Below are positions 17,509 through 58,575 of a stretch of 64,000 nucleotides of DNA, one piece after another. A model generated the notes under the pieces. That model ran no database searches. It was not told the DNA's origin and saw only the letters and a list, made by a program, of their open reading frames with translations. Made by a program: the position numbers and the translations under genes. Within the stretch, counting starts at the first letter, position 1, and each line of letters starts with the position of its first letter. The stretch lies in assembly GCA_021157625.1 (NCBI GenBank), contig JAGGWD010000015.1, forward strand, positions 13,800 through 77,799. Reading direction: 5' to 3'. Source of the DNA: a bacterium (GTDB lineage Bacteria > Patescibacteriota > Minisyncoccia > Minisyncoccales > JAGGXC01).

Positions 17509-19927
17509 AAAATTTCTAAGCAGAGAAAAGATAATGACGATGAAGAAGGACATCGAGATGGCTAAATTGGGCAAATTTCCTGAAAGAGAGAAAGAGAAAT
17601 TGGTAGCCCAAAAGAAAAAGGAAGAAGAACAAAGAAAGATAGAAGAAGAAAGAAAAAGGATGGAAGAGATAAGAAAAAGGAAGGAAGAGCAAAGAAGAAA
17701 AATGGAGGAAGAGCAAAGAAGAAAAATGGAGGAAGAGCAAAGAAGAAAAATGGAGGAGGAATGGATAAGAAAAGAAATGGAAAGAAAGAAAAGAGAAGAA
17801 GAAGAAAGAAAAAGAAGAGAAGAAGAGAGAAAAAAGAGAATTGAGGAAGAAATGAGAAGAATAGAAGAAGAAAGGAAGAAGAGAGAAGAAGAAAGAAGAA
17901 AAAGAGAAGAAGAACGAAAGAAAGAAGAGATGGAAAGAATGAAAGCCTTAGCCCAAAAACCTTTGAAAGAAAGAATAAAAGAAGAAAAGGAAGAGATAGA
18001 GAAAGAGTTATCTCTCATTCAGGCTAAAAAACAACCTCTCCAAGAAAAGAAAAGGGAAATTTTAGAGCGAAAGAATAAAGTAAAAGAGGATCTCAACATT
18101 GCTTTAGAAAACGAGAAAAGGATTGAAGAAGAAGTCTTCAGGCTCCAAAAATTGGAGGAATCCGCTTCCTTTGACGAAAAAGAAAAGATAGAGGCTCAAA
18201 GATGGGAAATGGAAAGAAAAAGAAGAGAAGCAGAAGAAAAAAGATGGGCCATAGAGGATATACTTTATCAAATAGCAGAAGAAGAAGAGAAAATAGAAGA
18301 AGAATGGCAAGAAATTTCTAGTCAGGAAGAAAGATTGAATAAAAAACTAGAACAAATCTCAGCTCAGGAAGAATTGATAAAACTCCAAGAAAAGAAAAAG
18401 AAATTAGAAAATCGCCTTAGAGAACTTTTAGAACAAAGAGAGCCATTAGAGAACAAATTATCTAAAATCTCTGAGAGAAAATCCGAAACAGAAAAGCTTC
18501 TTAATGAAATTCTTGTTAGAGAAAATGAAATAGAGAAAGCAATAGCAGCGCTTGAAGAAAAAGAAAAGAGTACCCCTCTTTCTCCAGAAAAAAGAAGAAT
18601 AGAACAAAAAAGATGGGAAACTGAAAAAGAAAGAGAAAGAATAGAACAAAAAAGATGGCAAATAAATAATGAAATAAAAGCAATAGAAAAGGAAGAGAAA
18701 GAACTAAAGACAAGTTATGAAGACCTCTCAAGAAAGATTGAGATTGTGAAAAAGAGAATTGAAGAGATAGATCTTCTCATAGAAGAAAAGAGAAAGATTA
18801 TTACATCTACAGAAGAATTTGTATCACCAGCCCAAAAGAAAAAGGAAGAAGAACAAAGAAAGATAGAAGAAGAAAGAAAAAGGATGGAAGAGATAAGAAA
18901 AAGGGAGGAAGAGCAAAGAAGAAAAATGGAGGAGGAATGGATAAGAAAAGAAATGGAAAGAAAGAAAAGAGAAGAAGAAGAAAGAAAAAGAAGAGAAGAA
19001 GAGAGAAAAAAGAGAATTGAAGAAGAACTTAGACTTCTAAGAGAGAGAGCTCAAAAAGAAAGAGAAAGGATTATTGTCGAAGAAATCAGAAGAAAAGCAA
19101 AGGAAAGAGCAGAGAAAGAAAAAATGGAAGAGGAAAGGATTCTTAAACCAGAGCAACTACCCCAAAAAAGAGAACTTCCCAAGAAACCTTCCTTGCTCCA
19201 GAAAATAATCATAAGAATATTTGTTCTCCTTTTAATTCTTATTATTGCAGCAACAGCCTTATTCTTCTGGTGGTATTTTAGAGAAAAAGCAAAACCTCCT
19301 CTTCCTCCTCAACAACCGACTCAACCACAAGAAACCATACCCCTCCCTCCTTCTCCTCCTCTCTTTGTAATCACCCAAGCCAGTACAACTATAGAAGCCT
19401 CGAGCTCTCAGGAAATTCCTTCTGCATTAGAAGACTTTCTGAGAAAGCAAGAAATTAAAGAAGGGGATTTCCTTCAATTGCAGGTAAAGAATCTGGAAGC
19501 CAACAAAGAGATTAAGCTTGACGAATTTCTGACAGCTCTTGAAATGAACTCTCTCAAGGATCTTTCTTTATGCTTTGAAGAAAAATTTTCCCTTTTTGTC
19601 TATTCTCAGCCAACAGGAAAAAGATTAGGCTTTGCTATTACTCTCAAAAACAAAGAAGAAATAGAAGAATTAATGAAATCTTGGGAAGACAATGCCCAGC
19701 AAGACTTTCAGAAATTCTTTCTCTTAATGGAACATAAAGGTTCAGCCATGAATCCTGTGTTTAGAGATGCTGTTTACAAAACAAAACATTTTCGTTATCT
19801 TACATATTCAAGAAAAGATTTAGGAATCTGTTATCTGATATCAGAAGATTTCCTCATCTTTACCAGTTCTTATGAAAGCATGAAGAAAATAATTGAATAT
19901 TTAAATGAACAACAAATAAATGAATAA
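17480..19927 (+). CDS. ER/K-rich coiled-coil / single-alpha-helix-like bitopic membrane protein (815 aa)
   Basis: ~530 aa of E/R/K repeats (EEERKRREEERKK...), one TM helix (IIIRIFVLLLILIIAATALFFWWYF), a Pro-rich linker, and a ~190-aa C-terminal globular domain. The start overlaps the pnp 3' end (alternative Met at 17534). Confidence 0.6.
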   Translation: MAQKEDKGDRKFLSREKIMTMKKDIEMAKLGKFPEREKEKLVAQKKKEEEQRKIEEERKRMEEIRKRKEEQRRKMEEEQRRKMEEEQRRKMEEEWIRKEMERKKREEEERKRREEERKKRIEEEMRRIEEERKKREEERRKREEERKKEEMERMKALAQKPLKERIKEEKEEIEKELSLIQAKKQPLQEKKREILERKNKVKEDLNIALENEKRIEEEVFRLQKLEESASFDEKEKIEAQRWEMERKRREAEEKRWAIEDILYQIAEEEEKIEEEWQEISSQEERLNKKLEQISAQEELIKLQEKKKKLENRLRELLEQREPLENKLSKISERKSETEKLLNEILVRENEIEKAIAALEEKEKSTPLSPEKRRIEQKRWETEKERERIEQKRWQINNEIKAIEKEEKELKTSYEDLSRKIEIVKKRIEEIDLLIEEKRKIITSTEEFVSPAQKKKEEEQRKIEEERKRMEEIRKREEEQRRKMEEEWIRKEMERKKREEEERKRREEERKKRIEEELRLLRERAQKERERIIVEEIRRKAKERAEKEKMEEERILKPEQLPQKRELPKKPSLLQKIIIRIFVLLLILIIAATALFFWWYFREKAKPPLPPQQPTQPQETIPLPPSPPLFVITQASTTIEASSSQEIPSALEDFLRKQEIKEGDFLQLQVKNLEANKEIKLDEFLTALEMNSLKDLSLCFEEKFSLFVYSQPTGKRLGFAITLKNKEEIEELMKSWEDNAQQDFQKFFLLMEHKGSAMNPVFRDAVYKTKHFRYLTYSRKDLGICYLISEDFLIFTSSYESMKKIIEYLNEQQINE
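17606..17860. repeat. Intragenic direct repeat copy 1 (~200 bp shared with copy 2; includes a 24-bp x3 tandem at 17684-17755)
   Basis: gcccaaaagaaaaaggaagaagaacaaagaaagatagaag... is nearly nucleotide-identical to 18830-19030. Copy 1 carries two extra 24-bp units (gaagagcaaagaagaaaaatggag), giving EEQRRKME x3. Confidence 0.8.
18830..19030. repeat. Intragenic direct repeat copy 2
   Basis: Near-identical to 17606-17860 minus the two extra 24-bp units. Confidence 0.8.
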
Positions 19928-22894: not shown

Positions 22895-24430
22895 ATGTCT
22901 TCTAAGGTTTTCTCAGCTGCTTTAGTAGGATTAGATGCTCAGATAATTGAAGTAGAAACAGATATCTCTTATGGATTAAGACGATTGGAGATAGTAGGTC
23001 TTGGCGATAAAGCGATTCAAGAATCAAAAGAAAGGGTAAGCGCAGCTATAAAAAGTTCTTATTTAAAACCTCCCTATCATTTTCCCCAAAGAGTTCTTAT
23101 TAATCTCGCCCCTGCTGATTTGAAAAAAGAAGGAGCTTGTTATGATCTTCCTATCGCTCTTTGTTATTTGCTTGCTTCAAAACAAGTGAATTTCTCTCCT
23201 CATGGCAAGCTCATAGTTGGGGAACTAGCATTGGATGGGAAATTAAGAAAAATAAAAGGAGTGCTTGCTCTAGCACTGCTTGCCCAAAAAAAGAATTTTA
23301 AAGAAATTATCCTTCCCAAAGCAAATGCTCCTGAAGCTGCTCTCATAAAGGGATTGAGGGTAATTGGAGTAGAAACATTAAAAGAAGCTATAGAATATCT
23401 TGAAGGGAGAAAAGAAATTCTCCCTTTTTTGGTAGATATCGATTCTATTAAATCAGAGAATGAATATTCCATCGATTTAGGACTTATCAAAGGGCAAGAA
23501 TATGCAAAAAGAGGATTAGAAATTGCTGCTGCTGGAGGACATAATCTTTTAATGATAGGACCGCCAGGCACCGGCAAAACTCTTCTGGCAAAAGCTATTA
23601 CTGGCATCTTGCCTTCTCTCTCTTTTGAAGAATCGCTTGAGGTGACAAAGATCTACAGCATTGCAGGACTTCTTTCTCAAGAAAAACCTTTAATCAAAAT
23701 ACGACCATTTCGTTCACCTCATCATAGCTGCTCTGAAGTAGCACTGATCGGTGGAGGTAACCCTCCTCGACCTGGAGAGATCACCCTTGCCCACAGGGGA
23801 GTACTTTTTTTGGATGAATTTCCTGAATTTCACCGAGATGTCTTGGAATCTCTCCGCCAGCCGATGGAAAATGGCTACATTATTATTGCAAGAGCCCGGA
23901 CCAGAGTAAAATTTCCAGCAAATTTCACATTGGTAGCTGCTTCCAATCCTTGTCCTTGTGGCTACTTAAACGATCCAACAAGAGAATGCAAATGTAGTAG
24001 CGCTCAGATCCAAAAATATCAAAGAAAACTCTCCGGTCCTATTATAGATAGAATAGATGTCTTTGTAGAAGTTCCTCCTGTAAAATATGAGAGATTAACA
24101 GAAGAGTATATAAAAAATTCAAGCGAGCACATAAGAAAAAGGGTAGAAAAAGCTCGCCAGATTCAAAGAGAAAGATTTAAAAAAGAAAAATCTCTCACTC
24201 AGACCACCAATAGTGAACTTACAATTGATCAAATTAAAAAATATTGCCAACTTGATTCAAAATCTCGCGCTCTGTTAAGAAAATTTGTAAATTCAGGAAA
24301 ACTTTCTGTTCGTGGTTATCATAGAGTTCTTAAAATGGCTCGCACTATTGCTGATCTTGAAGGAAAGCTTTCTATTTCTTTTTCTCATCTAAGTGAGGCT
24401 TTAATGTATAGGATAAGAGAAGAAAAATAA
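22895..24430 (+). CDS. comM: YifB/ComM family Mg-chelatase-like AAA+ ATPase
   Basis: 511 aa with an N-terminal Lon-protease-like domain and an AAA core (GPPGTGKT, VLFLDEFPEF). Confidence 0.85.
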   Translation: MSSKVFSAALVGLDAQIIEVETDISYGLRRLEIVGLGDKAIQESKERVSAAIKSSYLKPPYHFPQRVLINLAPADLKKEGACYDLPIALCYLLASKQVNFSPHGKLIVGELALDGKLRKIKGVLALALLAQKKNFKEIILPKANAPEAALIKGLRVIGVETLKEAIEYLEGRKEILPFLVDIDSIKSENEYSIDLGLIKGQEYAKRGLEIAAAGGHNLLMIGPPGTGKTLLAKAITGILPSLSFEESLEVTKIYSIAGLLSQEKPLIKIRPFRSPHHSCSEVALIGGGNPPRPGEITLAHRGVLFLDEFPEFHRDVLESLRQPMENGYIIIARARTRVKFPANFTLVAASNPCPCGYLNDPTRECKCSSAQIQKYQRKLSGPIIDRIDVFVEVPPVKYERLTEEYIKNSSEHIRKRVEKARQIQRERFKKEKSLTQTTNSELTIDQIKKYCQLDSKSRALLRKFVNSGKLSVRGYHRVLKMARTIADLEGKLSISFSHLSEALMYRIREEK

Positions 24431-24433
24431 AAC

Positions 24434-24461
24434 AAAAAACTCTCGATTCGAGAGATTTTTG
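24434..24461. terminator. Bidirectional intrinsic terminator
   Basis: aaaaaa-ctctcg-att-cgagag-atttttg between convergent genes. Confidence 0.45.
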
Positions 24462-24476: not shown

Positions 24477-25556
24477 TTATCGGGCAAATGGATTTCGAGG
24501 AGGAGAACCTTGAGAACTATAAAGTCCAAAGTGAAGATGGCAACCAGCAGATCCAGCAGGAATAGTTTTTCCAGAATGTCCTATCAATCCAATAAGCTCT
24601 CCTTGCGAAACCTCCTGGCCGACTACTACCAGAATTTTTTGAAGATGTCCATAATGTGTTATCAGCCCATTTGGATGAAGGATTCTAATATAATTTCCTG
24701 CTCCACGATTATAACCATATTTTACCTTCAGCACCTTTCCTCCGGCAGCAGCAAAAACAGGTTTTCCGCAACTATTACCTACATTAGCAAAATCAACAGC
24801 ATTATACCAATGAAGACCTTGAGTAACTCGATAAGGAGAGGAAACTGGGACGATAAAATAACTCGAAGCAACTGGAATTTGACTAAAGGAATAGCTGTAA
24901 CTCCTTACTTGAACAGGCTTAACTCCGCCGGGAATAACCAGAATATCTCCTACATAAATATCTCCCTCTTCTGAAAGATCATTAAAAGCAATAATATCCT
25001 CAATTTTTGCTTTATAAGTACGAGCAATCTCGCTTAAAGTATCACCTTTCTTTACATGGTGAATTACCCCTGAGACCGGAAGGATAATTAATTTCTGACC
25101 AGGACGAATAATAGAGTTTCTTCCTAAATCATTTGCCCATAAAATGGTATTTAAAGAAATACCAAAATCAGCAGCAATAGAACCAAGAGTATCGCCCGGT
25201 TGAACCACATATTCTGTAATTTCCTTTTTCTGAATTTCCTCTCCCGACAATGCAGCTAAGGTCTTGGAAGAAAAAATCTGGAGACAGGAAACTCCAGCTA
25301 AGCTGTTATTCTGGATAAAAGTAAGTTCAGGCGATTCGATATAAGATCTATCTTGAGAATTAATAAATAACTTCTGCTGCTTGAGAGAAACTGCCTGAAT
25401 TCTTTGATCTCCAAAAGAAAAACTCAACCAAAAACCTACAGAAATAACTAAAACCCCTATTAAAAAAACTAAAAATTTGCTCCACAAAGATTTTAACATC
25501 TTGTCTTCTAAATTAGTAAATCTATTCTGAAAGTCAAGTAATTTCTCCACAGCCAT
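24477..25556 (-). CDS. LysM (x2) + M23 family metallopeptidase (cell-wall hydrolase)
   Basis: Two LysM motifs (GDTLGSIAADFGISLNTILWAN; GDTLSEIARTYKAKIEDIIAFN) and an M23 catalytic region (HxxxD...HLHF). Confidence 0.8.
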   Translation of the reverse strand: MAVEKLLDFQNRFTNLEDKMLKSLWSKFLVFLIGVLVISVGFWLSFSFGDQRIQAVSLKQQKLFINSQDRSYIESPELTFIQNNSLAGVSCLQIFSSKTLAALSGEEIQKKEITEYVVQPGDTLGSIAADFGISLNTILWANDLGRNSIIRPGQKLIILPVSGVIHHVKKGDTLSEIARTYKAKIEDIIAFNDLSEEGDIYVGDILVIPGGVKPVQVRSYSYSFSQIPVASSYFIVPVSSPYRVTQGLHWYNAVDFANVGNSCGKPVFAAAGGKVLKVKYGYNRGAGNYIRILHPNGLITHYGHLQKILVVVGQEVSQGELIGLIGHSGKTIPAGSAGCHLHFGLYSSQGSPPRNPFAR

Positions 25557-25575
25557 TTTTATTTATGGATTCAGA

Positions 25576-28086
25576 ATGAAATTTATTATAAAATTAAAAA
25601 AAATAAGTATAACACCCATGAAAAAACAAAAAATTTATCTATCCCTTCTTGCGATAATAATATTGATCTCTCTTTTTATTATATTTTTAGCGACAACAAA
25701 AAATCAGCAAGTAGTAAAAGCATCCCCAGGGATATACCTAGAATTCAGATGCGACGAAAACAATAACAAGTGTGGCGACAGAATTCTGGTGAGAGCATGT
25801 GTTGGAACAGGAGGTGAAAAAGTATGTACTCCAGGTTTTGACAAAATAGACGATCTTATCCAGGCAATAAAGGAAAAATGGGGATGGGAAGAACCTGAAA
25901 ATTGGAGCGATCTCCCAAGTCTTTTGAAGTGTAAAGACTATCAAATTTGTACTAGATTAGCCCCTCCTCCTACTGAATGGAGTAAAATACCTGCTTATTG
26001 CAAATGTAAAGGAAAATGTATAGAAAAGCCTAAAAGAGCAGGAACCGAAGAATGCCCCGAATGTGGAATTAGAGACGGAATTGATTTTGTGAATCCTGAA
26101 AGCGGCCCCATCTTCTTACCTGCCCATTTTGATTGGGAAAAGGTAGAGGGAGCAAAATCATATCGATGGAAAGCTGTCCCTGTTGCAATCCCAGGTGTTA
26201 CATATGTACCAAGTACTAACACAAAAACCATAGTCTCTGATGTTATAAGAGATATCTCACACCCTCGCAATCCTCCTACCGAATATACACCACCCTCTTG
26301 TTCTCTTCAATCAGGAAACGCATATTATTGGAAAGTTCAGCCATGTTGTGATCTTGCTGGACTCAATTGTAAACCATGGGCAGAGCTTGATGCCTGGCCT
26401 TTTACTACAAGTCTAGCCCCTGAACCAGCTACTCCTTCTGATCCTGACTGGAATAACACTACCAGTGAAGCAGAAACGCAAGACATTCCTGTAATTCTGG
26501 ACTGGTGTGACCCTCCCGATAACACAGTTATGTTGGGCGAAGGCAGAAAAGGAGAATATTATTATGACCAAGGACGAGGAAAGAATATAACCAGTTATAA
26601 ATTAAAACTTTACCACATAAACAGTGAAAATCAGGAAGAGTGTCATCCTTTATTAGTTAAAGATGGAAAATGTATACCAAAAGAAATAATCCCTGGTTCT
26701 AATTGGCCATGGGATAAACTCTACTCTCTTTGGGAAGACTTCACAGGAACATATTTAATTGAGAACCAACGATATAGATGGCAAGTGGCTACTTGCTATT
26801 TATCGGAAGGAAAGGAATACTGTAGTGACTATAGCCAGAAATGGGGCTTTTCTGTAGGAACAAATATTAGAGAAACAGAATTGATAGCTCCTCCAAATAA
26901 TATCAATGATGCTATAGGTCTTCCTGTGACTTTTAAATGGAACAGAGCAATTGGAATCAATTCTTATAATTACAATATTGGAGGCCATACTGGTACTACC
27001 TCAGCAAACATCATAACTTTTGATTGGCCTGATTTTGAGCTCGATACAGTCTATAATTGGACAATCCAACCCTGTACTGACTATGCAGCTCAAAATTGCA
27101 AAGATTGGCTTGATCCTTGGCAATTCAAAATCACTGGTGCTCCTCCTGTTTTGCTTGCTCCTACAGGAACAGAAGCGCTTTCAGCAGTAATTCCTGTAAA
27201 ACTTGATTGGAAAGATGTCTCAGGAGCAGGCTCCTATGAGTATAGAATATTAGGAGGAATAAGCCCAGTAAAAGGAGTGGTGAATGTATCGGAAGTTGTA
27301 GTAGATTATCCTGATCTGAAACTAAACCATGTCTATACTTGGCAGGTTAGAACATGCGCCCATAAAGATGGAAGCGTATGCGGAAAGTGGAGCAATCTTG
27401 GCGCTTTCACTACTTTCTCAATGGGATTTCCTGTTCTCATAAAACCTTCTCTTAATGCAAAAATTGAAGAACCGGAAATACGGTTCTCTTGGAAACCGTT
27501 GAAAGGTGCTAAGTATTACGAATACGTTATAAAGAACAAGAACACAGGAGAGGAAATCTTTCATAAGATTATAAATTCAGATTCCATCACACACTATTCC
27601 TACGAGTTTCCTGAAGTAGGAGAGTATGAATGGAGAGTAAGAGGATGTCTTGATTCAAGCTGCGGAACGGGAGGTGCAGGACCATGGAGTAATTGGCGAA
27701 CTTTCAACTTAGCACTTACAGCGCCTCCACAAAGACAAGGAGGATTAGTTCCCTGTGGCCGTCTCTATGATGATCCCAACACACCATGGGATGAGAGAGA
27801 ACAATGCCAGATTAAACATCTCTTCTTGCTTATTAGAAATATCTTGGATTTTCTTCTCTGGAAGTTAGCAACCATTCTCTTAATACTCGCATTGGTAGCA
27901 GTTGGGGTTATGCTCTACATCTCTAAAGGAGAAACAACTATTATCTTGCAAGTAAAATCTGCTCTCAAATGGATAATCATAGGATATGGTCTAATACTTC
28001 TCGCTTGGTCTATTGTCAACTTCCTCTTAGCCCTTGCTGGATTTCGGTTTCAAATCTTTGGACATTGGTGGGAACTACCTTTCTAA
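25576..28086 (+). CDS. Large (836 aa) secreted Cys/Trp-rich FN3-like repeat protein ending in a pilin-like hydrophobic hairpin
   Basis: N-terminal signal/anchor; at least 6 repeated ~95-aa modules with FxWxxVxGAxxYxY and Y.W.V..C motifs (FN3-like with paired Cys). The C-terminus (VPCGR...CQIKH then 2 TM separated by KGETTIILQVKS) is homologous to 13928..14458. Confidence 0.6.
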   Translation: MKFIIKLKKISITPMKKQKIYLSLLAIIILISLFIIFLATTKNQQVVKASPGIYLEFRCDENNNKCGDRILVRACVGTGGEKVCTPGFDKIDDLIQAIKEKWGWEEPENWSDLPSLLKCKDYQICTRLAPPPTEWSKIPAYCKCKGKCIEKPKRAGTEECPECGIRDGIDFVNPESGPIFLPAHFDWEKVEGAKSYRWKAVPVAIPGVTYVPSTNTKTIVSDVIRDISHPRNPPTEYTPPSCSLQSGNAYYWKVQPCCDLAGLNCKPWAELDAWPFTTSLAPEPATPSDPDWNNTTSEAETQDIPVILDWCDPPDNTVMLGEGRKGEYYYDQGRGKNITSYKLKLYHINSENQEECHPLLVKDGKCIPKEIIPGSNWPWDKLYSLWEDFTGTYLIENQRYRWQVATCYLSEGKEYCSDYSQKWGFSVGTNIRETELIAPPNNINDAIGLPVTFKWNRAIGINSYNYNIGGHTGTTSANIITFDWPDFELDTVYNWTIQPCTDYAAQNCKDWLDPWQFKITGAPPVLLAPTGTEALSAVIPVKLDWKDVSGAGSYEYRILGGISPVKGVVNVSEVVVDYPDLKLNHVYTWQVRTCAHKDGSVCGKWSNLGAFTTFSMGFPVLIKPSLNAKIEEPEIRFSWKPLKGAKYYEYVIKNKNTGEEIFHKIINSDSITHYSYEFPEVGEYEWRVRGCLDSSCGTGGAGPWSNWRTFNLALTAPPQRQGGLVPCGRLYDDPNTPWDEREQCQIKHLFLLIRNILDFLLWKLATILLILALVAVGVMLYISKGETTIILQVKSALKWIIIGYGLILLAWSIVNFLLALAGFRFQIFGHWWELPF

Positions 28087-28101
28087 GAATGAAAGAATAC
28101 G

Positions 28102-28764
28102 ATGAAGAGAATATGGAAGTTATTAAAAATTATTCTCTTATTTCTTCTGGTAATAGGAATATTGATTTCTGTGGGCTTGTATTATGCGAGTCAAAAATTA
28201 GAAAAGATAAAAAACTCAATAGAGCCAGAGACTTTATCCCAGATTAATTTCCTAATAAGCAAAGAAGAGCAGAAAAATCTCGAACATAAGGAATTTGTAA
28301 CTCCTGACGGAAAATTAAAGCTCAAATATCTTTCTAATTGGAGAGAGATAAAAGATCCAGCAACGTTAGAAACAAGCCTTCCAAAAGAAATTAAGGAAAA
28401 TTACGGACTTGAGATTTTGTTTCTTGCAAGAAGATTAACGGGTAAAGGATTAAGCCAATTGGAGATATGCAAAGGAACATTGGAAGCTGAGTCTGTCAAA
28501 GAATTTATCGAAGCAACAAAAGCCTTATATCAAAAAGAAGGTTGGGAAATGGAAATTATTGATTCTTCAAAACCAAAAGATAATGAATATATTTTTGAGA
28601 TAAGGTACAGTAAGCCAAATCGGCATTCTTTTAGATCAAAGGAGAAAATAGTTTTCTTAGAAGATACAGCCTATATAGTAACCTTTTTCACAGCAGAAAG
28701 AGATTGGAATAATTTCCTAAAAGAGAGTAACGAAATAATGGATTCCGTAGAGATCATTGATTAA
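28102..28764 (+). CDS. N-terminally membrane-anchored hypothetical protein (220 aa); possible VirB8-like position
   Basis: A single N-terminal TM followed by a ~190-aa extracytoplasmic domain. The role is inferred from its location within the T4SS-like locus only. Confidence 0.35.
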   Translation: MKRIWKLLKIILLFLLVIGILISVGLYYASQKLEKIKNSIEPETLSQINFLISKEEQKNLEHKEFVTPDGKLKLKYLSNWREIKDPATLETSLPKEIKENYGLEILFLARRLTGKGLSQLEICKGTLEAESVKEFIEATKALYQKEGWEMEIIDSSKPKDNEYIFEIRYSKPNRHSFRSKEKIVFLEDTAYIVTFFTAERDWNNFLKESNEIMDSVEIID

Positions 28765-29905
28765 TTTAAAAATGGGTTGGTTTGTGTTAAAATTAAATAA
28801 TATGAAAAAATATAGAAGACAACTACTTACTGTCATTTTTATATCAATATTGATTAGTTTTCTTTCTTTTGGTTCTCAGGTAAAAGGATTAGAATTAAAC
28901 TGGCCTACTGCGCCCGGAGGAAAGGAACTAAGCGATGAAAGTACGCTAGTTGATTTCGTGGATTATGCTTATCGATGGGGAATATTTCTTGGAGGATTAG
29001 CTGCTTTTATTGCTCTCATTATTGCCGGATTTCAATATCTAACTTCGGTCGGAGATCCTGCTAAAATGAAGGAGGCAAGAGAAAGAATTATTGCTGCTAT
29101 TGCCGGTTTGGTTCTTTTACTTTCTACTTTTATTATCCTAAATACTTTGAATCCTGATTTAACAACCCTTTCTCCTCCTACAAGTGATATTAGCGGTATG
29201 CCAACTGGAAACTGGCAAAACCCTGATTGGGATAAACCATGTGAGTTTGTAAAAATCTATAAAGAAAAAAATTATAAAGGTCATATCCTCACAATAGGGA
29301 AAGGAGGGAAATTTGATCTAGAAGAATGTATTCTTACAGGAATAGGTATTCCCATAATACCAGGGGTATGGACATGGTACATTAGCGAAACCCCAATAAA
29401 ATCTGTTTTGATGAAGGGAGCATGCCAATTGAATTTATATGAAGAAGACAAGTGTAAAGGAAATTTCACAGGAATAGGAAAAAGCATGCCGAATCTTGAT
29501 TGGGTTTCCCAAAGTCACATTTATTCAATCAAAGCAGTAGACATTTCTCCTCCTATTCCGCCAAAAGTCAAAACTGTAACATTTCCTCCTCCTACTCCTC
29601 TGAAACAACCCGATGGAACATACAAGGCAACTTTAAAAGGAGCACTGCTTGATTTCGGAAGGACCGACAGAGTAAGAGTACATTTTGAATATGGGAAAAA
29701 CAAACTCTATCTTGATAAAACAGCTCCGCCAGACCCTGAACAGTTTCAAGAGATCTTTGTTCAAGATATACCTGCTGGAGGAATACCGTTTTCTGTAGAG
29801 ATTGAAGGATTAGCTACCAACACTACTTATTTCTGGAGAGCCATAGCAGCAAATGAAGCAGGGCCTGCTTATGGAACTACTTCCAGTTTTACTACAGGAC
29901 CATAA
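28757..29905 (+). CDS. N-terminal pilin-like hydrophobic hairpin module (VirB2/TrbC-like topology) fused to a C-terminal FN3-like extracellular domain
   Basis: Signal peptide (alternative start at 28802, MKKYRRQ...), then helix-loop-helix FIALIIAGFQYLTSVG-DPAKMKEARERI-IAAIAGLVLLLSTFIILNTL. The C-terminus ends with the classic FN3 strand motif YFWRAIAANEAGPAYGTTSSFTT. Confidence 0.55.
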   Translation: MINLKMGWFVLKLNNMKKYRRQLLTVIFISILISFLSFGSQVKGLELNWPTAPGGKELSDESTLVDFVDYAYRWGIFLGGLAAFIALIIAGFQYLTSVGDPAKMKEARERIIAAIAGLVLLLSTFIILNTLNPDLTTLSPPTSDISGMPTGNWQNPDWDKPCEFVKIYKEKNYKGHILTIGKGGKFDLEECILTGIGIPIIPGVWTWYISETPIKSVLMKGACQLNLYEEDKCKGNFTGIGKSMPNLDWVSQSHIYSIKAVDISPPIPPKVKTVTFPPPTPLKQPDGTYKATLKGALLDFGRTDRVRVHFEYGKNKLYLDKTAPPDPEQFQEIFVQDIPAGGIPFSVEIEGLATNTTYFWRAIAANEAGPAYGTTSSFTTGP

Positions 29906-29921
29906 AGAAGATTTTAAATCA

Positions 29922-32162
29922 ATGTCATCCCAAAAAACCAAAATATTCTTATTTATTCTCCTGTTAATCTCTTTCTCTCTCACTTGTCCAAAACCGACAC
30001 ACGCTATTATTGGGACGGGAATTTTTGATTGGGCAGACTCGGTCCTTAATGCTCTGGATTCTTTTGATCAAGCTATTCTCTCTTTCCTTTTGAAGCTTGT
30101 AATCTTTGCTTTCCTTTCAGCCGGATTTGCTGTTCTTTCTGCCTATCTACTGGAATGGGCAGTAGACCTTCCTTTATATTTAAATAATCCTGCTGTGCTT
30201 GCAGGTTTTCATTTCATAGTTGGGCTCGTAAATCTTTTTTTTGTTCTTGCTATTGTTTTTATTGCTTTAGCCTATATTCTAAGAATAGAAACATTTCAAC
30301 TCAAGAAGGTTTTTGCTCGTTTAATTCTTGCAATATTATTAGTGAACTTTAGTCTCCTTATAGTTGGCGCTTTTGTTGACATCGCACAATTTTTTATGAA
30401 TACCCTGCTTAGCGCCTATGGAAAGGATTTTGCTAACACCGCTCTTCTTCCTTTAAGAAGTTCTTTGGGAGCTATTACAAATGTAATTATTGCTACAATT
30501 ACAGGATATGTAGCCTCCGCCTTTACTGTATTTGGTGCTCCTTTCTCGCTTGTTTATTTAGGCTTGATGTTTTGGCAAGGAAACTTACTGGGAAATGTAT
30601 TTTCAATAGTAGTACTGATTCTATTCAATCTTGTAATGGGAGCAATCTTTTTTGTTTTTACTGTGCTGTTTATAATAAGAATCGCTGCTCTTTGGATTTT
30701 AGGAATATTTGCTCCTCTGGGAGTCTTTTGTTTTGTTTTCGATCAGACCAAAAAATACGGATGGGAATGGCTAAAAGCAACGTTTCAGTGGGCTACTCTT
30801 GGAATAGTTGCTTTCTTTCTGTTAGGGCTTATCCTATCTATTTTTAGTGCTGCTTTTCTCAGTAGACCCGGAAATATTGATATATCCCCAATCGCAGGCG
30901 TACCCAGCTTCCAATTACCTCCCTCAATTTATAATTATTTGTTCTTGATTATTTTCTTAATAGTCGCTTTCTACGGAAGCTTAAGATATGTTCCAGTAGG
31001 CGCCCAAGAAGTAATTGGAGTAATGAAGGCACAATTAAAAGCTTTAGGAGGTGTAGCAGGAATAACTAGTTTAATGAAAAAAGGAGTAGGTGGCGTCGCA
31101 AGAAGAGTAGTTCCTGAGAAAGTAAGAAGAAAAGCAGAGCAATTAGCAACTGCTCCAGGCCTTCCCACAAGAGAGGAGTTCGAAAAGATGTCACGAAGAG
31201 AAAAACTAAAAAGACTAGTCATTTCTCCTTACGCTAAGAGAGCGTTAGGCAGAGCAATAACATCTGTAACTGTTAAAGCCGATGAAGGTGTTTATACAGA
31301 AACAAAGAAAAAATTCAAAGGAAAAGATGTTCAAACTAAAGTAGAATGGTTCCACAAGGAAAGCGATTTCGTAAAGAAGGCTGCCATTCTTGCATCGTTG
31401 ATTGAAGAAAAACAACTCAAAGATGCAATGGATAAAGGACGGTTTGGAACTAACGCTCTTCAATATAGTGGGGCAGAATTAAATGCAGCTTTGAGAAAAT
31501 TAGTAAGAATGGGAAAGGAAGATGAGTGGAAAGCAATGCTTAGAGCATTCAAGGACAAAAAAGACGAATTTTATAACATTCTTAGAGAAGAAAAAACGCT
31601 TACAGAAAAAGACCTTTCAAAGAAAGGATACAAAAACATTACTGAATACATAGCAGGAGAAACTAAGAAAGCAGATCAAATAAAACAGTTAAATAAAGAT
31701 TGGTTTGATGACGATGAATTTGCAGACGCTATTCACAAATTTTGGGGAGGCCATCAAGTTGGAGAAGCCGCAAAAGCTTTCGGTCGGAAATTCACTGATA
31801 CTTTTAATGCTCACGCCAAACCACTTGACTGGTATTATGAGATAGACCCTTCAACTGGAAAAATGAGAAATGCTCAACTACCTCGATATCTAGCAAGCAC
31901 AGGAGCAATGAATGCAGGGCTTTATCCAATTGAAGGTGGAGAAGATAGAAAGAAACTAAATGAATTATTTAGAAAAGGTTTAGAGAAAGAAAAAGCATGG
32001 ACAAGCGCACCTCCTTCCTTTGAAGAAGTAGAAAAAGAAGAGAAAAAAGAACCCCCCTCTACTCCTCCACGAGGAAGCAGAGGTTTAGGAGGAAGAAAAC
32101 CACCAAGAGGAAGTAGAGGCCTTGAAGGAGGAAAGCCTCCAAGAGGAAGCAGAGGAGTATAA
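29922..32162 (+). CDS. VirB6/TrbL-like polytopic membrane protein with a large hydrophilic C-terminal domain and terminal Pro/Arg/Gly repeats
   Basis: Start set at the Met after the upstream stop; signal-like N-terminus, ~7 TM helices (aa 60-390), a ~350-aa C-terminal soluble region, and a 3x tandem PPRGSRGLxGG(K) at the end. Confidence 0.5.
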   Translation: MSSQKTKIFLFILLLISFSLTCPKPTHAIIGTGIFDWADSVLNALDSFDQAILSFLLKLVIFAFLSAGFAVLSAYLLEWAVDLPLYLNNPAVLAGFHFIVGLVNLFFVLAIVFIALAYILRIETFQLKKVFARLILAILLVNFSLLIVGAFVDIAQFFMNTLLSAYGKDFANTALLPLRSSLGAITNVIIATITGYVASAFTVFGAPFSLVYLGLMFWQGNLLGNVFSIVVLILFNLVMGAIFFVFTVLFIIRIAALWILGIFAPLGVFCFVFDQTKKYGWEWLKATFQWATLGIVAFFLLGLILSIFSAAFLSRPGNIDISPIAGVPSFQLPPSIYNYLFLIIFLIVAFYGSLRYVPVGAQEVIGVMKAQLKALGGVAGITSLMKKGVGGVARRVVPEKVRRKAEQLATAPGLPTREEFEKMSRREKLKRLVISPYAKRALGRAITSVTVKADEGVYTETKKKFKGKDVQTKVEWFHKESDFVKKAAILASLIEEKQLKDAMDKGRFGTNALQYSGAELNAALRKLVRMGKEDEWKAMLRAFKDKKDEFYNILREEKTLTEKDLSKKGYKNITEYIAGETKKADQIKQLNKDWFDDDEFADAIHKFWGGHQVGEAAKAFGRKFTDTFNAHAKPLDWYYEIDPSTGKMRNAQLPRYLASTGAMNAGLYPIEGGEDRKKLNELFRKGLEKEKAWTSAPPSFEEVEKEEKKEPPSTPPRGSRGLGGRKPPRGSRGLEGGKPPRGSRGV

Positions 32163-32189
32163 AAAAAGAGGAAGTTGGCTTCCTCATAT

Positions 32190-33281
32190 TTATTTTTGGA
32201 GATTTTTTTGGATTTTTTTCAAAAGTTCTTTAAACTCTCTAATCTCTTCTTGGGTTATTGCCTCAGGCGGCTTTCCAAAAATACCCCGAAGAACCTCCTG
32301 AATACCTGGAATTGCTTGTATTGTAAGACTTGCTGCCAATTCACTTTTTTCTACTGCTTCACAGACCCTAATCAACTTTCCAATGTCTCCAAAATCCTGA
32401 ATAGTAGAGTAAACCCTCTCTATCCTTGCCTTCTCTGCCTCTGCCTCTGTGATAATTTTGTCTTTTTCTCTTTCGGCTAAATATTTAGCAATCGTTGCCT
32501 TTCTATACTCTTCTGGAGGATTAATATCTTTAACCTCGATCTTTCTTATTTTTATCCCATATCTCTCTTCGAACTCTTCTTTCCCTATTCTTTCTGTAAT
32601 TTCTCGACCAATCGAAGCCAAATCTTGAATCCAATGTTCATAAGACTTCTGAGTGATAATATTTCTTGTCTGAGCACGAGCCCTGTTTATAACTGCCTCC
32701 AACCAATTCTCAATGTTAAACAACGCCTTATAAGGATTAACCACCTGAATCGTAAATAATAGTTCTAGCGTTAAAGGCAGTTTATTTTTATCCTCTGCTT
32801 TCTCTACCTTAGCCCAGTATACATCCTCTTTCAGCAAAATATAGTCAAGCGTTTCCTTTGGATGAGATTCCACTTTTCCATCTTCAGTTACTCCTGTCCA
32901 CTTGAAATCATAGATATAAACATCGTAGATTGGCCAGAGACCATAATATCTTAATCCTCCAAAAGGATGCCATGGTTCTCTGCCTTCTATGACTTCCCAG
33001 GTTTCTGGATCTAATGTATGCCCTTTCCACTGAATTAACATTTGAGCAACTTCTCCTCCTCTGACAATTGCCTTTGCTGTTCCTTCTCTAACAAATGTAA
33101 AATATAGATTTCTTGGTGCCAGATAAAAATAGATAATCAGAAATGAAAGCAAGAAAAATAGTGGCACCACCAGCAAAGGCAAGGCTATTCCAAACAATCC
33201 TAGCAAAAAAGCAACTATCCACCAGAGAACAAGAGAAATTACAACCCATATTATTACTCCTCCAATCTTCATTCCTCTCAC
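32190..33281 (-). CDS. SPFH/band-7 (stomatin/prohibitin-like) membrane protein
   Basis: N-terminal TM hairpin, an SPFH core and a coiled-coil C-terminus (EAEAEKARIER). Confidence 0.7.
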   Translation of the reverse strand: MRGMKIGGVIIWVVISLVLWWIVAFLLGLFGIALPLLVVPLFFLLSFLIIYFYLAPRNLYFTFVREGTAKAIVRGGEVAQMLIQWKGHTLDPETWEVIEGREPWHPFGGLRYYGLWPIYDVYIYDFKWTGVTEDGKVESHPKETLDYILLKEDVYWAKVEKAEDKNKLPLTLELLFTIQVVNPYKALFNIENWLEAVINRARAQTRNIITQKSYEHWIQDLASIGREITERIGKEEFEERYGIKIRKIEVKDINPPEEYRKATIAKYLAEREKDKIITEAEAEKARIERVYSTIQDFGDIGKLIRVCEAVEKSELAASLTIQAIPGIQEVLRGIFGKPPEAITQEEIREFKELLKKIQKNLQK

Positions 33282-33399
33282 CTCCTTATTTAGTTTTCAA
33301 CTTCTTTATATTATAAAAATATTTTTTGATTTTGTCAAGGTTTTGTAAAATCTCGAAAAATGGTATCATTATATAACAACAAAGTCTTATCTTTGCAAC

Positions 33400-33849
33400 A
33401 TGTTAAAAGAATATACTCCTGAACAATTTTGGAAACTTTACGAAAAACTTCCTCAAGATCTTCAGGACGCTATCTTCTCAGAAGAGACAGCAAACAATAT
33501 TTATACCATTTGTGACAGATACCAGATAGATGAAATTCCAAAAGTTGCAAAAATTGTGGGATTTATTTTACTTGGTGTTCTTCCCCCTGATGAACTTTAT
33601 GAAACTCTAGTAAAAGAGTTATATATAGAACCTGAAGTAGCCAAGAAGGCAACCCGAGAAATTATAAGATTTATTCTTTATCCTGTAAGAAAAAGTTTAG
33701 AAGGCTTATATGGTATCGGCGCAAAATTCTCTTTGGAAGAAACAGAAGAAAGAATAGTTGTTCCTAAAAAGAAAACTATTTCTTCCAAAACTGCTCCCAA
33801 AACTACCAAAAGAGATATCTACAGAGAACCTATTGAAGAAGAGGAATAA
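33400..33849 (+). CDS. Hypothetical cytoplasmic protein (149 aa)
   Basis: No recognisable motif; an intrinsic terminator follows. Confidence 0.35.
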   Translation: MLKEYTPEQFWKLYEKLPQDLQDAIFSEETANNIYTICDRYQIDEIPKVAKIVGFILLGVLPPDELYETLVKELYIEPEVAKKATREIIRFILYPVRKSLEGLYGIGAKFSLEETEERIVVPKKKTISSKTAPKTTKRDIYREPIEEEE

Positions 33850-33867
33850 GTTTGTTTCTAACAATTT

Positions 33868-33897
33868 TGAATAAAAAGACAGCAATGCTTTTCTGTC
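33868..33897 (+). terminator. Intrinsic terminator
   Basis: aaaagacag-caatgctttt-ctgtctttt followed by a T-run. Confidence 0.45.
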
Positions 33898-33956
33898 TTT
33901 TTATTCAATTTGATTAACTTTTATGGTACAATTTTACTAAAAACAGTATAGTTAAG

Positions 33957-34364
33957 ATGGAATTCACAGTTCCTCAATTTATTGAACACGAAGCAAAGGT
34001 AATAGGACCTTTCACTTTTAAACAATTTATTATAGTCGCCATTGCAGGAATAATCTGTTTTGTGGCTTATTACAAAACTCCTCTTTGGGTCTTTATCCCT
34101 GTCTGTATTATTGTAGGAGGAGGAGCTCTTGCTATTGTCTTTGTAAAGATTCAAGGTCGCTCTCCTTTGGTAATGGTAGCCAATTTTATAAGCTTTATCT
34201 TTTCTCCCAAAGTATATTTATGGAAGAGAAAGATAGTACCTATAAGAGTAACTCCAAGAAAGCCGCTTAAAGAAGAAGAAAAAGTCAAAGAACAGATGCC
34301 AAAAAGAGTCAAAAAAAGTAGATTAAGAGAACTATCAATAAAAATAGAGACAACAAGAAGATAA
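33957..34364 (+). CDS. Small 2-TM protein, VirB3-like candidate
   Basis: 135 aa with two adjacent TM helices near the N-terminus and a basic C-terminal tail. It lies immediately upstream of the VirB4-like genes (VirB3-VirB4 synteny). Confidence 0.4.
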   Translation: MEFTVPQFIEHEAKVIGPFTFKQFIIVAIAGIICFVAYYKTPLWVFIPVCIIVGGGALAIVFVKIQGRSPLVMVANFISFIFSPKVYLWKRKIVPIRVTPRKPLKEEEKVKEQMPKRVKKSRLRELSIKIETTRR

Positions 34365-34366
34365 AT

Positions 34367-35002
34367 ATGGCCCAAATACCAACACAAAAATTTTTAGAGA
34401 TAGAAGATATTAGAGAAGGAATAGTTATTCTAAAAAACAAAACATTGAGAGGCGTTTTAATAGTATCTTCTTTAAATTTTGCCCTAAAATCAGAAGAAGA
34501 ACAAAATGCTACTATTTTTCAATTTCAAGAATTTCTAAACTCTTTGGATTTTCCTCTTCAAATCGTGGTGCAATCAAGAAGATTAAACATCACTGGTTAT
34601 CTAGATAAGTTAAAGAGTCTTGAAGAAAGACAAGAAAATGAATTATTGAAAGCTCAAACTGCTGAATACAGAAAATTTATAAAAGATCTGATAGCCAAAG
34701 CCTCAATTATGCAAAAGAATTTCTTTGTAGTGGTTCCTTTTATACCTTTCGGCGCAGAGGCTACCAAAAAAGGCTTCTTTGCTAAACCAACACTTCCTAC
34801 TTTGACAGAAGAAGTTTTTCAACGAGCAAAAGTTCAGCTCTGGCAAAGAATGGAGTTCATTATACTTGGTCTAAGAAGATGTGGTCTTCAAGCTCAACCA
34901 TTAGATAGTCCTGAGTTAATTGAACTTTTCTGGAGCATTTATAATCCCGAAGAAGCTGAATTCGGATATTATCCCGAGATTCCTCCTGAACTTATAAGAT
35001 AA
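34367..35002 (+). CDS. Hypothetical soluble protein (211 aa); possibly the detached N-terminal domain of VirB4
   Basis: Tightly linked, only 17 nt upstream of the VirB4-like ORF; 211 + 608 aa is close to the usual VirB4 length. Stop codons occur in all frames between the ORFs, so it is not a simple frameshift. Confidence 0.4.
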   Translation: MAQIPTQKFLEIEDIREGIVILKNKTLRGVLIVSSLNFALKSEEEQNATIFQFQEFLNSLDFPLQIVVQSRRLNITGYLDKLKSLEERQENELLKAQTAEYRKFIKDLIAKASIMQKNFFVVVPFIPFGAEATKKGFFAKPTLPTLTEEVFQRAKVQLWQRMEFIILGLRRCGLQAQPLDSPELIELFWSIYNPEEAEFGYYPEIPPELIR

Positions 35003-35019
35003 CTAAATAATAAATTAAT

Positions 35020-36846
35020 ATGCCTTTTCCTTTCTTTAAAAGAAAATCAAGCATACCAGAATTAGAGAAAATCGCTCAAGAAACTATTTTAGATGTAAAA
35101 GATATTATCGCTCCTTCTTCCATTATCGTAGGAGATGAGTCTATAAAATTGGGAGGGCGATTAGCAAAAAGCTTCTTTATTTTCTCTTATCCCCGCTATC
35201 TTAGTACAGGATGGCTTTCTCCTGTAATCAATCTAGATACTCCAATGGATATTGCTATCTTTATTCATCCTCTTGAAACAGGGCCATTACTCAAAAAACT
35301 AAGAAGACGAGTAACAGAGGTACAGGCAGAAATTGCTGAAAGAGAAGAGAAGGGACTAATAAGAGATCCGGCTCTTGAAACTGCTTATCGGGATCTAGAA
35401 ACCTTGAGAGAAAGACTCCAAACTGCTCAAGAAAGAATGGCAAATCTTGGGGTATACATCACTATTTATGGAGAAAATGAAAAACAATTAAAAGAAATCG
35501 AAACAACAATTCGTTCAATCCTTGAAGCAAGGCTTATATATATAAAACCCAATACTTACAAACAAAGAGAAGGTTTCATTTCTGCTCTTCCCTATGGAAT
35601 GGATAAGATCCAAAGGTATACTTTAATGAACACTTCTCCTATATCAAGCATTTTTCCGTTTATTTCTTTTGATTTAAGTAGTAACGAAGGAATTCTTTAT
35701 GGAATTAATAAACACAACAACTCTCTCATCCTCTTTGATAGATTTTCTCTTGAGAATGCCAACGAAGTTGTCTTTGGAAAAGCGGGAGGAGGTAAAAGCT
35801 ATGCTGTGAAATTAGAAATTCTAAGACTGCTAATGCAGGGAGTAGATGTGATAGTAATCGATCCTGAAAACGAATATGAGTTTTTAGCTGATGCCGTGGG
35901 CGGTTCGTTCTTTAACATATCTCTCTCTTCCCAAAACCATATCAATCCTTTTGATTTGCCAGTTGTAAGAGAAGATGAAAAACCTGAAGATGTCTTAAGA
36001 GCAAATGTAATAAACCTAGTAGGACTCCTCCGAATAATGCTAGGAGGGTTAACTCCAGAAGAAGACGCTATAATAGACAGAGCTATTACTGAAACCTATG
36101 CTGCCAGAGATATAACCCCAGAAACAAATCCTGAAACCTGGCACGCCAATATTCCTTTAATGGAGGATTTAGAATCTGTTCTGGAAGGAATGGAAGGAAC
36201 AGAGTCTCTGGTAAGAAGATTAAGAAAATTCACAAAAGGCACTTACTCTCAATTTTTTAATCAACCTACAAACATCTCTATGGAAAAAAGTTTTGTCTCT
36301 TTTGGAATAAGAGACATGGAAGAGGAATTACGTCCAATGGCAATGTTTGTAATTATGCGCTATATCTGGAACAAAGTAAGATCAGAATTGAAAAAAAGAG
36401 TTCTTGTAGTAGATGAAGCATGGTGGATAATGCAGACAGAAGATGGCGCCTCTTTCCTATATGGTCTTGCAAAGAGAGCAAGAAAATACTGGTTAGGAGT
36501 GACTACCGTAACTCAAGACGTTGGTGATTTTATGAAATCCACTTATGGCCAACCAATTATCACTAATTCTTCTATTCAACTACTTCTAAAACAAAGCCCT
36601 GCCACTATAGATGTAGTCCAGAAAGCGTTTAATTTAACCGAACAAGAAAAGTATCTATTGCTTGAATCAGCAGTAGGAGAGGGATTGTTTTTTGCTGGGC
36701 CCAAGCATGTGGCAATTAAAATAGTAGCTTCTTATGCTGAAGATCAATTCATTACCACTTCCCCAGAACAAGTTCTCAAAATTAAAAAAGCCAAAGAAAA
36801 ATTAGCTAAAGAAAAACCTCTATCTGAGGAAGAAAAACTTTATTAA
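35020..36846 (+). CDS. VirB4/TrbE/CagE-family type IV secretion ATPase (608 aa)
   Basis: Walker A GKAGGGKSY, Walker B VLVVDEAWW, and N-terminal conserved YPRYLSTGWLSPV, as in monoderm VirB4 homologues. Confidence 0.75.
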   Translation: MPFPFFKRKSSIPELEKIAQETILDVKDIIAPSSIIVGDESIKLGGRLAKSFFIFSYPRYLSTGWLSPVINLDTPMDIAIFIHPLETGPLLKKLRRRVTEVQAEIAEREEKGLIRDPALETAYRDLETLRERLQTAQERMANLGVYITIYGENEKQLKEIETTIRSILEARLIYIKPNTYKQREGFISALPYGMDKIQRYTLMNTSPISSIFPFISFDLSSNEGILYGINKHNNSLILFDRFSLENANEVVFGKAGGGKSYAVKLEILRLLMQGVDVIVIDPENEYEFLADAVGGSFFNISLSSQNHINPFDLPVVREDEKPEDVLRANVINLVGLLRIMLGGLTPEEDAIIDRAITETYAARDITPETNPETWHANIPLMEDLESVLEGMEGTESLVRRLRKFTKGTYSQFFNQPTNISMEKSFVSFGIRDMEEELRPMAMFVIMRYIWNKVRSELKKRVLVVDEAWWIMQTEDGASFLYGLAKRARKYWLGVTTVTQDVGDFMKSTYGQPIITNSSIQLLLKQSPATIDVVQKAFNLTEQEKYLLLESAVGEGLFFAGPKHVAIKIVASYAEDQFITTSPEQVLKIKKAKEKLAKEKPLSEEEKLY

Positions 36847-58560: not shown

Positions 58561-58575
58561 CCCCTTACTTTAATT

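Follow-up and report, generated by a model that had tools for sequence, protein, structure and literature searches.

A probable Patescibacteria-type type IV secretion system, unlinked from DNA processing, beside the dnaA cluster of a Paceibacteria-like genome

The 64-kb stretch of contig JAGGWD010000015.1 analysed here, which we call the window, carries at positions 24477-36846 a gene cluster for a type IV secretion system (T4SS). We read this locus, with a probability of about 85%, as a chromosomal, origin-proximal T4SS of the Patescibacteria type, that is, a derivative of an MPF_FATA conjugation system that has become unlinked from DNA processing, resides in a Paceibacteria/Parcubacteria-like host, and uses its VirB4 ATPase to assemble surface hairpin proteins. 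The features that distinguish this type occur together in the locus: a VirB4 of the CD1110/MPF_FATA kind, an adjacent TrsD open reading frame (ORF), PrgI and VirB6, pilins of Pfam family PF18895, and a chromosomal position near dnaA. The locus is an ordinary member of an already published kind, a clean Paceibacteria example to which this copy adds only small details. Its ten ORFs, eight on the plus strand and the M23 and SPFH genes on the minus strand, lie where a preliminary description of the window had placed them (Table 1).

The ATPase and its membrane partners

The 608-residue product of the last gene is a VirB4 ATPase comprising the central and C-terminal domains. It scores 369 bits (cut-off 325) against NCBIfam model NF045971, the VirB4-like conjugal transfer ATPase of the CD1110 family, over model positions 177-733 of 752, and it matches the solved VirB4 C-terminal domain in the Protein Data Bank (PDB entry 4ag5) with an E-value of 1.3e-44. 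When compared by hmmsearch and phmmer with 13 proteins of plasmid pCF10, it pairs with residues 224-773 of PrgJ at E 1.7e-41, a value that, relative to so tiny a database, indicates the best partner only. Walker A (GKAGGGKSY, residues 253-261) and Walker B (VLVVDEAW, residues 461-468) are both intact, and a YPRYLSTGWL motif stands at residues 57-66. Contig Ga0187538_155989 (JGI 3300017593) encodes a protein identical to this VirB4. The preliminary description had recognised a VirB4-family ATPase while naming FtsK, TraG or another P-loop family as the alternative; the match above cut-off, together with 4ag5, PrgJ and the Walker motifs, settles the assignment on VirB4.

The soluble 211-residue product encoded just upstream matches solely the N-terminal regions of VirB4 models, namely positions 105-233 of NF045975 (E 4e-11) and 8-125 of NF045971 (E 1e-5). 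It also matches the TrsD model NF041427 (E 1.3e-3) and carries a precomputed Pfam match to PF26593 (TraC-like); a search of PDB sequences with the TrsD-family profile gave nothing meaningful. Judged from these model matches, the ORF encodes the equivalent of the VirB4 N-terminal domain as a protein of its own, as had been suspected, and the 211- and 608-residue ORFs jointly span a full VirB4. A frameshift artefact was considered as the cause of the split and rejected, since in each of the 77 relatives possessing both parts the first ORF ends before virB4 starts.

Directly before trsD lies the gene for a 135-residue protein with a hairpin of two transmembrane (TM) helices at residues 15-67. It exceeds the Pfam threshold for PrgI (PF12666, 32.8 bits; gathering score 27), and the protein previously described as VirB3-like is indeed PrgI/VirB3.

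The 769-residue protein is a VirB6/TrbL of the extended type, as judged from the Pfam matches of its homologues and from its modelled fold. A direct scan of the protein itself with Pfam and NCBIfam was without a match, and its family profile found only TrwI among PDB sequences, at E 1.7. Twelve of 19 aligned homologues match PF04610 (TrbL/VirB6), and the highest-probability Foldseek matches of the AlphaFold2 (AF2) model (pLDDT 72.6) are TrwI/VirB6 of plasmid R388, at 0.94 and 0.91. With about seven to eight TM helices (residues ~28-384), the protein combines the two properties by which we recognised VirB6/TrbL, at least five TM helices and similarity in profile or fold. The polytopic protein with a large hydrophilic C-terminal domain of the preliminary description is thus upheld by way of its homologues and its fold. 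That domain, of about 330 residues, is helical and confidently modelled, and the positive-inside rule suggests that it is probably cytoplasmic. It is followed by a tail of PPRGSRG repeats: at 32064-32162, the 3' end of virB6, three tandem 36-nt repeats encode an Arg/Gly-rich sequence of the (K)PPRGSRGL type, to which AF2 gives low confidence. The likely true start of virB6 is the ATG at 29922.

Pilin-like hairpin modules

Two proteins of the locus carry a VirB2-like hairpin, each as part of a larger architecture. The 836-residue surface protein consists of a signal anchor, an ectodomain of about 700 residues that is Cys-rich and Ig/FN3-like (with a match to the Ig-like family PF25788), and a C-terminal hairpin of two TM helices; its TM segments span residues 17-44, 755-787 and 795-825, and residues 751-817 match PF18895 (T4SS_pilin) at E 3e-5 and 24.4 bits, the gathering score being 26.6. 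In the 382-residue modular pilin, a signal peptide and the hairpin are followed by an FN3-like C-terminal extension of about 250 residues. Here residues 77-130 reach 35.5 bits against PF18895, the NF045849 model (Mbov_0395 pilin-like) matches at E 3e-6, and the TM segments lie at residues 21-45, 71-96 and 108-133; the ATG at 28802 is the likely true start.

A third, stand-alone VirB2-like pilin of about 176 residues (PF18895, 31.2 bits, above the gathering score) is encoded 10 kb away from the T4SS locus, between tRNA-Arg and tRNA-Lys genes. Since its listed ORF, which opens at 13859, overlaps the tRNA, the ATG after tRNA-Arg is the likely start. The preliminary description had counted three pilin-like hairpin proteins within the locus; this was mistaken, only two ORFs there having a T4SS_pilin hairpin and the third lying outside.

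In relatives, the ORFs that directly follow virB4 often open with a module resembling, by BLAST (E 1e-6 to 1e-22), the hairpin region of the 382-residue protein. These ORFs are 600-2,239 residues long, the similar stretch being the N-terminal ~130 residues; examples are L079:11838-18554, L062:12078-17090 and L052:12166-16236, where L numbers denote loci of relatives. An iterated hidden Markov model (HMM) of the hairpin picked up 132 ORFs, distributed over 71 loci; 80 of the ORFs exceed 400 residues. PF18895 went unconfirmed on six of seven giant examples and reached 19.7 bits on the seventh, and we therefore claim no more than a direct BLAST resemblance to the N-terminal module of the 382-residue protein. 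That the VirB2-like hairpin may in this lineage usually be one module of large surface proteins is offered as a lead rather than as a result.

Conservation in relatives and absence of DNA-transfer genes

One genome per species was scanned for relatives of the locus. The 80 loci returned encode VirB4 proteins 66-91% identical to that of the window and come without exception from metagenome-assembled genomes (MAGs) of Patescibacteria, among them Ca. Paceibacter normanii, Nealsonbacteria, Staskawiczbacteria and Wildermuthbacteria, in line with the earlier surmise that the organism is akin to the candidate phyla radiation (CPR). By tblastn at 1e-5, TrsD is encoded in 77 and PrgI in 73 of the 80, and both in all 48 loci with at least 9 kb of upstream flank, the set to which every count of 48 below refers. 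VirB6 was found in 42/48, and by HMM in 46 of the 52 loci with enough flank; the M23 hydrolase gene stands upstream on the opposite strand in 32/48, and homologues of the 836-residue protein occur in 14/48. The Jag-YidC-RnpA-DnaA cluster follows at most 10 kb downstream in 45 of 51 loci and lies directly upstream in four others. Dozens of MAG species of the Paceibacteria type share the core order VirB6...PrgI-TrsD-VirB4 beside the dnaA cluster, and the locus is therefore a vertically inherited chromosomal apparatus, not an integrated conjugative element (ICE).

Pfam scans of all ORFs of at least 110 residues across the 64 kb revealed no relaxase, no coupling protein of the VirD4/TraG/TcpA or FtsK type, and no integrase. 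The sole strong local inverted repeats in the window are terminator-like hairpins, with no repeat resembling an origin of transfer (oriT), and no repeats were found at the borders of the locus. A relaxase (MOB) and a type IV coupling protein (T4CP) near the MPF genes, which together mark conjugative MPF_FATA systems and ICEs, are missing from the 64 kb, and so are the hallmarks of an ICE (integrase, att repeats, variable presence, foreign composition), the position being fixed across 80 species. In the absence of a relaxase or an adjacent T4CP the locus is therefore not a conjugation machine.

On each of these points the preliminary description proved sound: it had reported neither relaxase, coupling ATPase nor oriT-like repeat in the 64 kb, and had preferred a chromosomal apparatus to an ICE. 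It would have given up that preference had the ATPase belonged to another P-loop family, had the VirB6- and VirB3-like proteins been without T4SS profile matches, or had synteny in relatives failed, and none of these applies.

It might still be asked whether the locus is a decayed ICE, a non-functional cargo that has lost its relaxase, T4CP and integrase. A VirB4 of the CD1110/MPF_FATA family, typical of Firmicutes ICEs and plasmids, in the company of no conjugation-specific genes is what such decay would leave behind. We consider this origin extremely improbable. All ORFs and Walker motifs are intact, there is no integrase, border repeat or compositional anomaly, and housekeeping genes abut both ends; the persistence of VirB4 at 66-91% identity across 80 species-level genomes, in the same position beside dnaA, effectively excludes it by synteny.

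A 149-residue family linked to prgI-trsD-virB4

The gene ahead of prgI encodes a soluble, cytoplasmic, helical protein of 149 residues with no match in Pfam, NCBIfam or the PDB, a search of the PDB with the family profile included. Its family comprises 1,820 representative clusters at E <= 1e-3. After a variable linker, its members end in a C-terminal DxYRE motif (consensus DxYREPIE), whose D, Y and E are invariant and whose R is nearly so in the family alignment. By HMM, 45 of 63 relatives have the gene upstream of virB4. When metagenome loci were recruited by means of this family, using a subset of its alignment, those with enough downstream DNA encoded TrsD in 36 of 36 cases and VirB4 in 35 of 36; the single locus devoid of VirB4 is a contig that ends after trsD. 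The family is thus tightly linked to prgI-trsD-virB4, widespread and unannotated, and the 149-residue protein is a good candidate for an unrecognised T4SS-associated component. Fusion of this protein to PrgI in relatives without a separate gene was considered and rejected, as no PrgI ORF longer than 180 residues was found.

We also put forward, tentatively, a joint proposal that is rather unlikely to hold in full. The 149-residue protein would be a conserved cytoplasmic subunit of the Paceibacteria T4SS whose DxYRE motif docks on TrsD/VirB4 or on the cytoplasmic domain of VirB6; as adaptor or gatekeeper it would take over part of the role of the coupling protein. The "pilins" would be modular surface proteins (to ~2,200 residues in relatives) whose VirB2-like hairpin is the module for an export or assembly that depends on VirB4.

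Hydrolase, SPFH and PsbP-fold proteins

The wall hydrolase and the SPFH protein of the preliminary description both carry the domains ascribed to them. The hydrolase, anchored by one TM segment at residues 20-50, has two LysM domains (PF01476, E 5e-27) and a Peptidase_M23 domain (PF01551, E 3e-22), and is a candidate for a functional substitute of VirB1. The SPFH gene, preceded by a promoter of perfect sigma-70 consensus (TTGACA-17-TATAAT at 33338-33310), occurs in 10/48 relatives and is probably an occasional neighbour rather than a core part.

The 220-residue protein had been assigned a VirB8-like position, wrongly as it turned out. Tried as a VirB8/PrgL/TraM scaffold, for which an N-terminal TM anchor with an NTF2-like alpha+beta domain is expected, it was rejected: its fold is that of PsbP/DcrB/Mog1. 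Its family is found in only 8 of 52 related loci (7/48 among those with the longer upstream flank), and we therefore treat it as a lineage-restricted extracytoplasmic accessory. The PsbP/DcrB fold of this N-anchored protein fits reports of a missing canonical VirB8; in particular, it is in line with the 2025 survey (PMC12102498), according to which VirB8 homologues in Patescibacteria are few and nearly all in class ABY1.

Gene organisation and genomic setting

Hairpins and promoters between the genes predict the boundaries of the plus-strand units: a four-gene unit (836-, 220-, 382- and 769-residue products), the monocistronic gene of the 149-residue protein, and a prgI-trsD-virB4 unit. Ahead of prgI, a promoter-like TTGATT...TACAAT lies 3' of the hairpin at 33867-33908, which is retained, with stem bases changed, in one relative (L001). 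Sequence features thus suggest that this hairpin and the promoter-like site are probably a terminator plus the promoter of the prgI operon.

Table 1. Features of the T4SS locus and the remote pilin gene (window coordinates)
Feature	Position	Strand	Basis or remark
Stand-alone VirB2-like pilin, ~176 aa	13928..14458	+	PF18895
Terminator-like hairpin	24440-24454		
N-anchored peptidoglycan hydrolase, 359 aa, 2 x LysM + Peptidase_M23	24477..25556	-	PF01476, PF01551
Surface protein, 836 aa	25576..28086	+	PF18895, PF25788, TM segments
N-anchored extracytoplasmic protein, 220 aa, PsbP/DcrB/Mog1 fold	28102..28764	+	
Modular VirB2-like pilin, 382 aa	28757..29905	+	PF18895, NF045849, TM segments
Extended VirB6/TrbL, 769 aa	29853..32162	+	Family Pfam matches and fold
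Bidirectional terminator-like hairpin	32168-32185		Between convergent virB6 and SPFH genes
SPFH/Band-7 membrane protein	32190..33281	-	PF01145, E 1.3e-16
Soluble helical protein, 149 aa	33400..33849	+	Uncharacterised family
Terminator-like hairpin, 19-bp arms	33867-33908		Plus strand; between the 149-aa gene and prgI
PrgI/VirB3-like 2-TM protein, 135 aa	33957..34364	+	PF12666
TrsD-like protein, 211 aa	34367..35002	+	N-terminal VirB4 model matches, PF26593
VirB4 ATPase, central and C-terminal domains, 608 aa	35020..36846	+	NCBIfam, PDB, pCF10 comparison

The flanks are housekeeping genes, as first described. ComM/YifB precedes the locus, and Jag, YidC, YidD, RnpA, DnaA and DnaN follow it; virB4 and jag overlap by 4 nt with no gene between them in the window, and dnaA starts 2 kb downstream of virB4. 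This downstream flank places the locus at the replication-origin gene cluster. The count of DnaA-box consensus sequences in the window shows no excess over chance, and origin proximity is therefore read solely from the rnpA-dnaA-dnaN cluster. The position probably gives high gene dosage. The GC content of the locus, 0.34-0.40, is like that of the remaining window, over which GC is even.

Several neighbours deserve mention in their own right. The ComM/YifB gene (22895-24430, plus strand), which encodes a Mg-chelatase-like member of a transformation-associated helicase family, directly abuts the locus, and its position is kept in at least 14/48 relatives, detection being limited by the 10-kb flank. 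At 17480-19927 (plus strand), an 815-residue protein without a Pfam family combines a coiled coil of about 560 residues, which is rich in E, K and R and includes a long internal duplication, with a single TM helix and some 200 residues of extracytoplasmic domain; its gene explains why purines are strongly skewed at 16-20 kb. On the minus strand, 823-2568 and 47596-48891 encode PilB-like T2SSE ATPases, of which one has an MshEN domain; by sequence the two point to a type IV pilus (T4P) system in this genome. Near the PilB-like genes, at 2595-4007 and 50523-54662, are genes for response regulators and histidine kinases. An archease and RtcB RNA ligase pair, with a DUF763 protein and S-adenosylmethionine synthetase encoded after it (58153-60018 and 61238-62473, both plus strand), is ordinary housekeeping context typical of CPR genomes.

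Proposed function and its alternatives

Going by their homologues in the systems of R388 and pCF10, VirB6 and PrgI would form a membrane platform on which TrsD and VirB4 would dock as the ATPase. The M23/LysM enzyme would open the wall locally, and VirB4 would extract Sec-inserted VirB2-like hairpin proteins from the membrane and assemble them into a surface fibre. Such a fibre may contact the host cell, and it might double as a conduit. The Ig/FN3-like ectodomains on two of the hairpin proteins favour a host-contact fibre or the display of adhesins.

Secretion of proteins is the alternative that we take most seriously, although we think it considerably less probable. The apparatus would then be an effector or protein translocator, like the T4CP-less Ptl of Bordetella or VirB of Brucella, and would deliver proteins to the host cell, the hairpin proteins being parts of its channel or its substrates rather than subunits of an adhesive fibre. 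Effector T4SSs without a T4CP do exist (PMC12857230), and Wang et al. name protein export as one option (PMC10633639). Substrates could be recruited by the C-terminal domain of the extended VirB6, which is large, helical and probably cytoplasmic, and the 149-residue protein, with its conserved C-terminal peptide, could act as an adaptor or be itself a substrate. However, neither candidate effectors nor immunity pairs turned up in the locus, and the commonest conserved accessory genes encode hairpin/pilin-module proteins; the present results fit secretion and fibre assembly alike.

An uptake device for DNA or nucleotides, comparable to ComB of Helicobacter pylori or the archaeal Ced system and feeding a cell unable to make nucleotides, strikes us as improbable. 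Relaxase and T4CP are absent, as they are from ComB; comM directly upstream, syntenic in at least 14/48 relatives, is a weak hint; T4SS loci of class ABY1 accompany comF/recG/radA (PMC12102498); and P-loop matches to CedB were obtained. Yet these matches are weak, far under the cut-off (46 bits versus 700), and the comM adjacency may reflect conservation of the neighbourhood only. Moreover, transformation of Ca. Southlakia epibionticum needs ComEC and T4P, and ComEC is dispensable for growth whereas the T4SS is essential (PMC12857230); according to the same review, interaction with ComEC does not explain the essentiality of the T4SS.

Several points weigh against our interpretation of the locus as a Patescibacteria-type, fibre-assembling T4SS unlinked from DNA processing. 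Membership of its VirB4 in the Patescibacteria clade is read from nearest-neighbour identity only (80 relatives, 66-91%). A T4CP may lie elsewhere in the genome, the scan having covered 64 kb; VirD4-like genes are in fact present in most surveyed genomes, but far from virB4 (PMC12102498). No VirB8-like scaffold was found in the locus, and the pilin match of the 836-residue protein sits just below the Pfam threshold. Finally, no Paceibacteria T4SS has so far been shown to have a function, nor has a pilus been seen so far.

A large part of bacterial diversity belongs to the Patescibacteria, and in the one genetically tractable member a relaxase-less T4SS is essential for life on the host cell. 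The window leaves the published picture unchanged. What it offers are leads: the family of the 149-residue protein locked to prgI-trsD-virB4, the hairpin modules on large surface proteins, and a PsbP/DcrB fold at the "VirB8 position". Among these, the linkage of the DxYRE family and the apparent fusion of pilin-like hairpin modules to very large ORFs in relatives are the small additions of this copy.

Comparison with known systems

The Ptl system of Bordetella, VirB of Brucella and ComB of H. pylori resemble the present locus in functioning without a dedicated coupling protein or relaxase. They differ in being diderm systems with VirB7/9/10 outer-membrane cores, and evidence of common descent extends to VirB4/B3/B6/B2 only.

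Among MPF_FATA systems, plasmid pGO1 shares a separate small TrsD, related to the VirB4 N-terminus and encoded just before the VirB4 ATPase (TrsE); unlike our locus, pGO1 is a conjugative plasmid with relaxase and T4CP. The prototype, Prg/Pcf of Enterococcus faecalis plasmid pCF10, has the same order of prgH (VirB6), prgI (VirB3) and prgJ (VirB4). In the 13-protein comparison, PrgH was the best partner of our VirB6, PrgI of our PrgI, and the PrgJ N-terminus of our TrsD; hhalign of the family alignments against single pCF10 proteins was uninformative, the templates being single sequences. The pCF10 system possesses a T4CP (PcfC) and a relaxase (PcfG), both encoded no more than 12 kb from prgJ, as well as the VirB8-like PrgL, the PrgK hydrolase and LPXTG adhesins, but no pilins, whereas the window has pilin-like proteins and lacks PcfC, PcfG and PrgL. 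In pCF10, VirB4 is one polypeptide of 796 residues; in the window it is split into 211 and 608.

From the Paceibacteria arrangement of the published Patescibacteria T4SSs, a recognised newcomer to the superfamily according to a 2025 FEMS review (PMC12857230), the locus shows no essential difference. Surveying 3,035 genomes, Quinonero-Coronel et al. (2025, Microb Genom; PMC12102498) found a monophyletic Patescibacteria VirB4 clade nested in MPF_FATA, with TrsD as the commonest partner, PrgI/VirB3, a VirB6 that is hard to detect, PF18895 pilins and M23/LysM-containing hydrolases; relaxases were near-absent, T4CP genes rarely adjacent, and dnaA/dnaN/rnpA proximity was seen in Paceibacteria. Absent from the discussion in that survey are the 149-residue DxYREPIE family, the protein with the PsbP fold, the neighbouring SPFH gene and the fusion of pilin hairpins to large ectodomains.

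The T4SS of Ca. Southlakia epibionticum, by transposon sequencing (Tn-seq), is essential for epibiotic growth, a requirement established for this species only; its pilins are essential too, and it has no recognisable coupling or relaxase proteins (Wang et al. 2023, Cell; PMC10633639). Its cluster in strain ML1 (SEML1_0006-0019) differs from ours in several respects. The organism belongs to class Saccharimonadia; it has six small tandem pilins, as against two modular and one remote in the window; its hydrolase is of the lysozyme/phage-tail-lysozyme type, ours of the M23 type; it encodes an NTF2-like protein (SEML1_0012, non-essential), our locus a PsbP-fold protein; and no separate gene like that of the 149-residue protein is evident between its VirB6 and PrgI genes. 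The likeness is nevertheless extensive. The order VirB6-like, PrgI, TrsD-position ORF and VirB4 (SEML1_0013/0011-0010-0009-0008) is that of the window, the gene numbers are close to the chromosome start, the cluster is free of coupling protein and relaxase, and both loci encode an extended VirB6 with a helical/ARM-like C-terminal domain, PF18895 pilins and a wall hydrolase.

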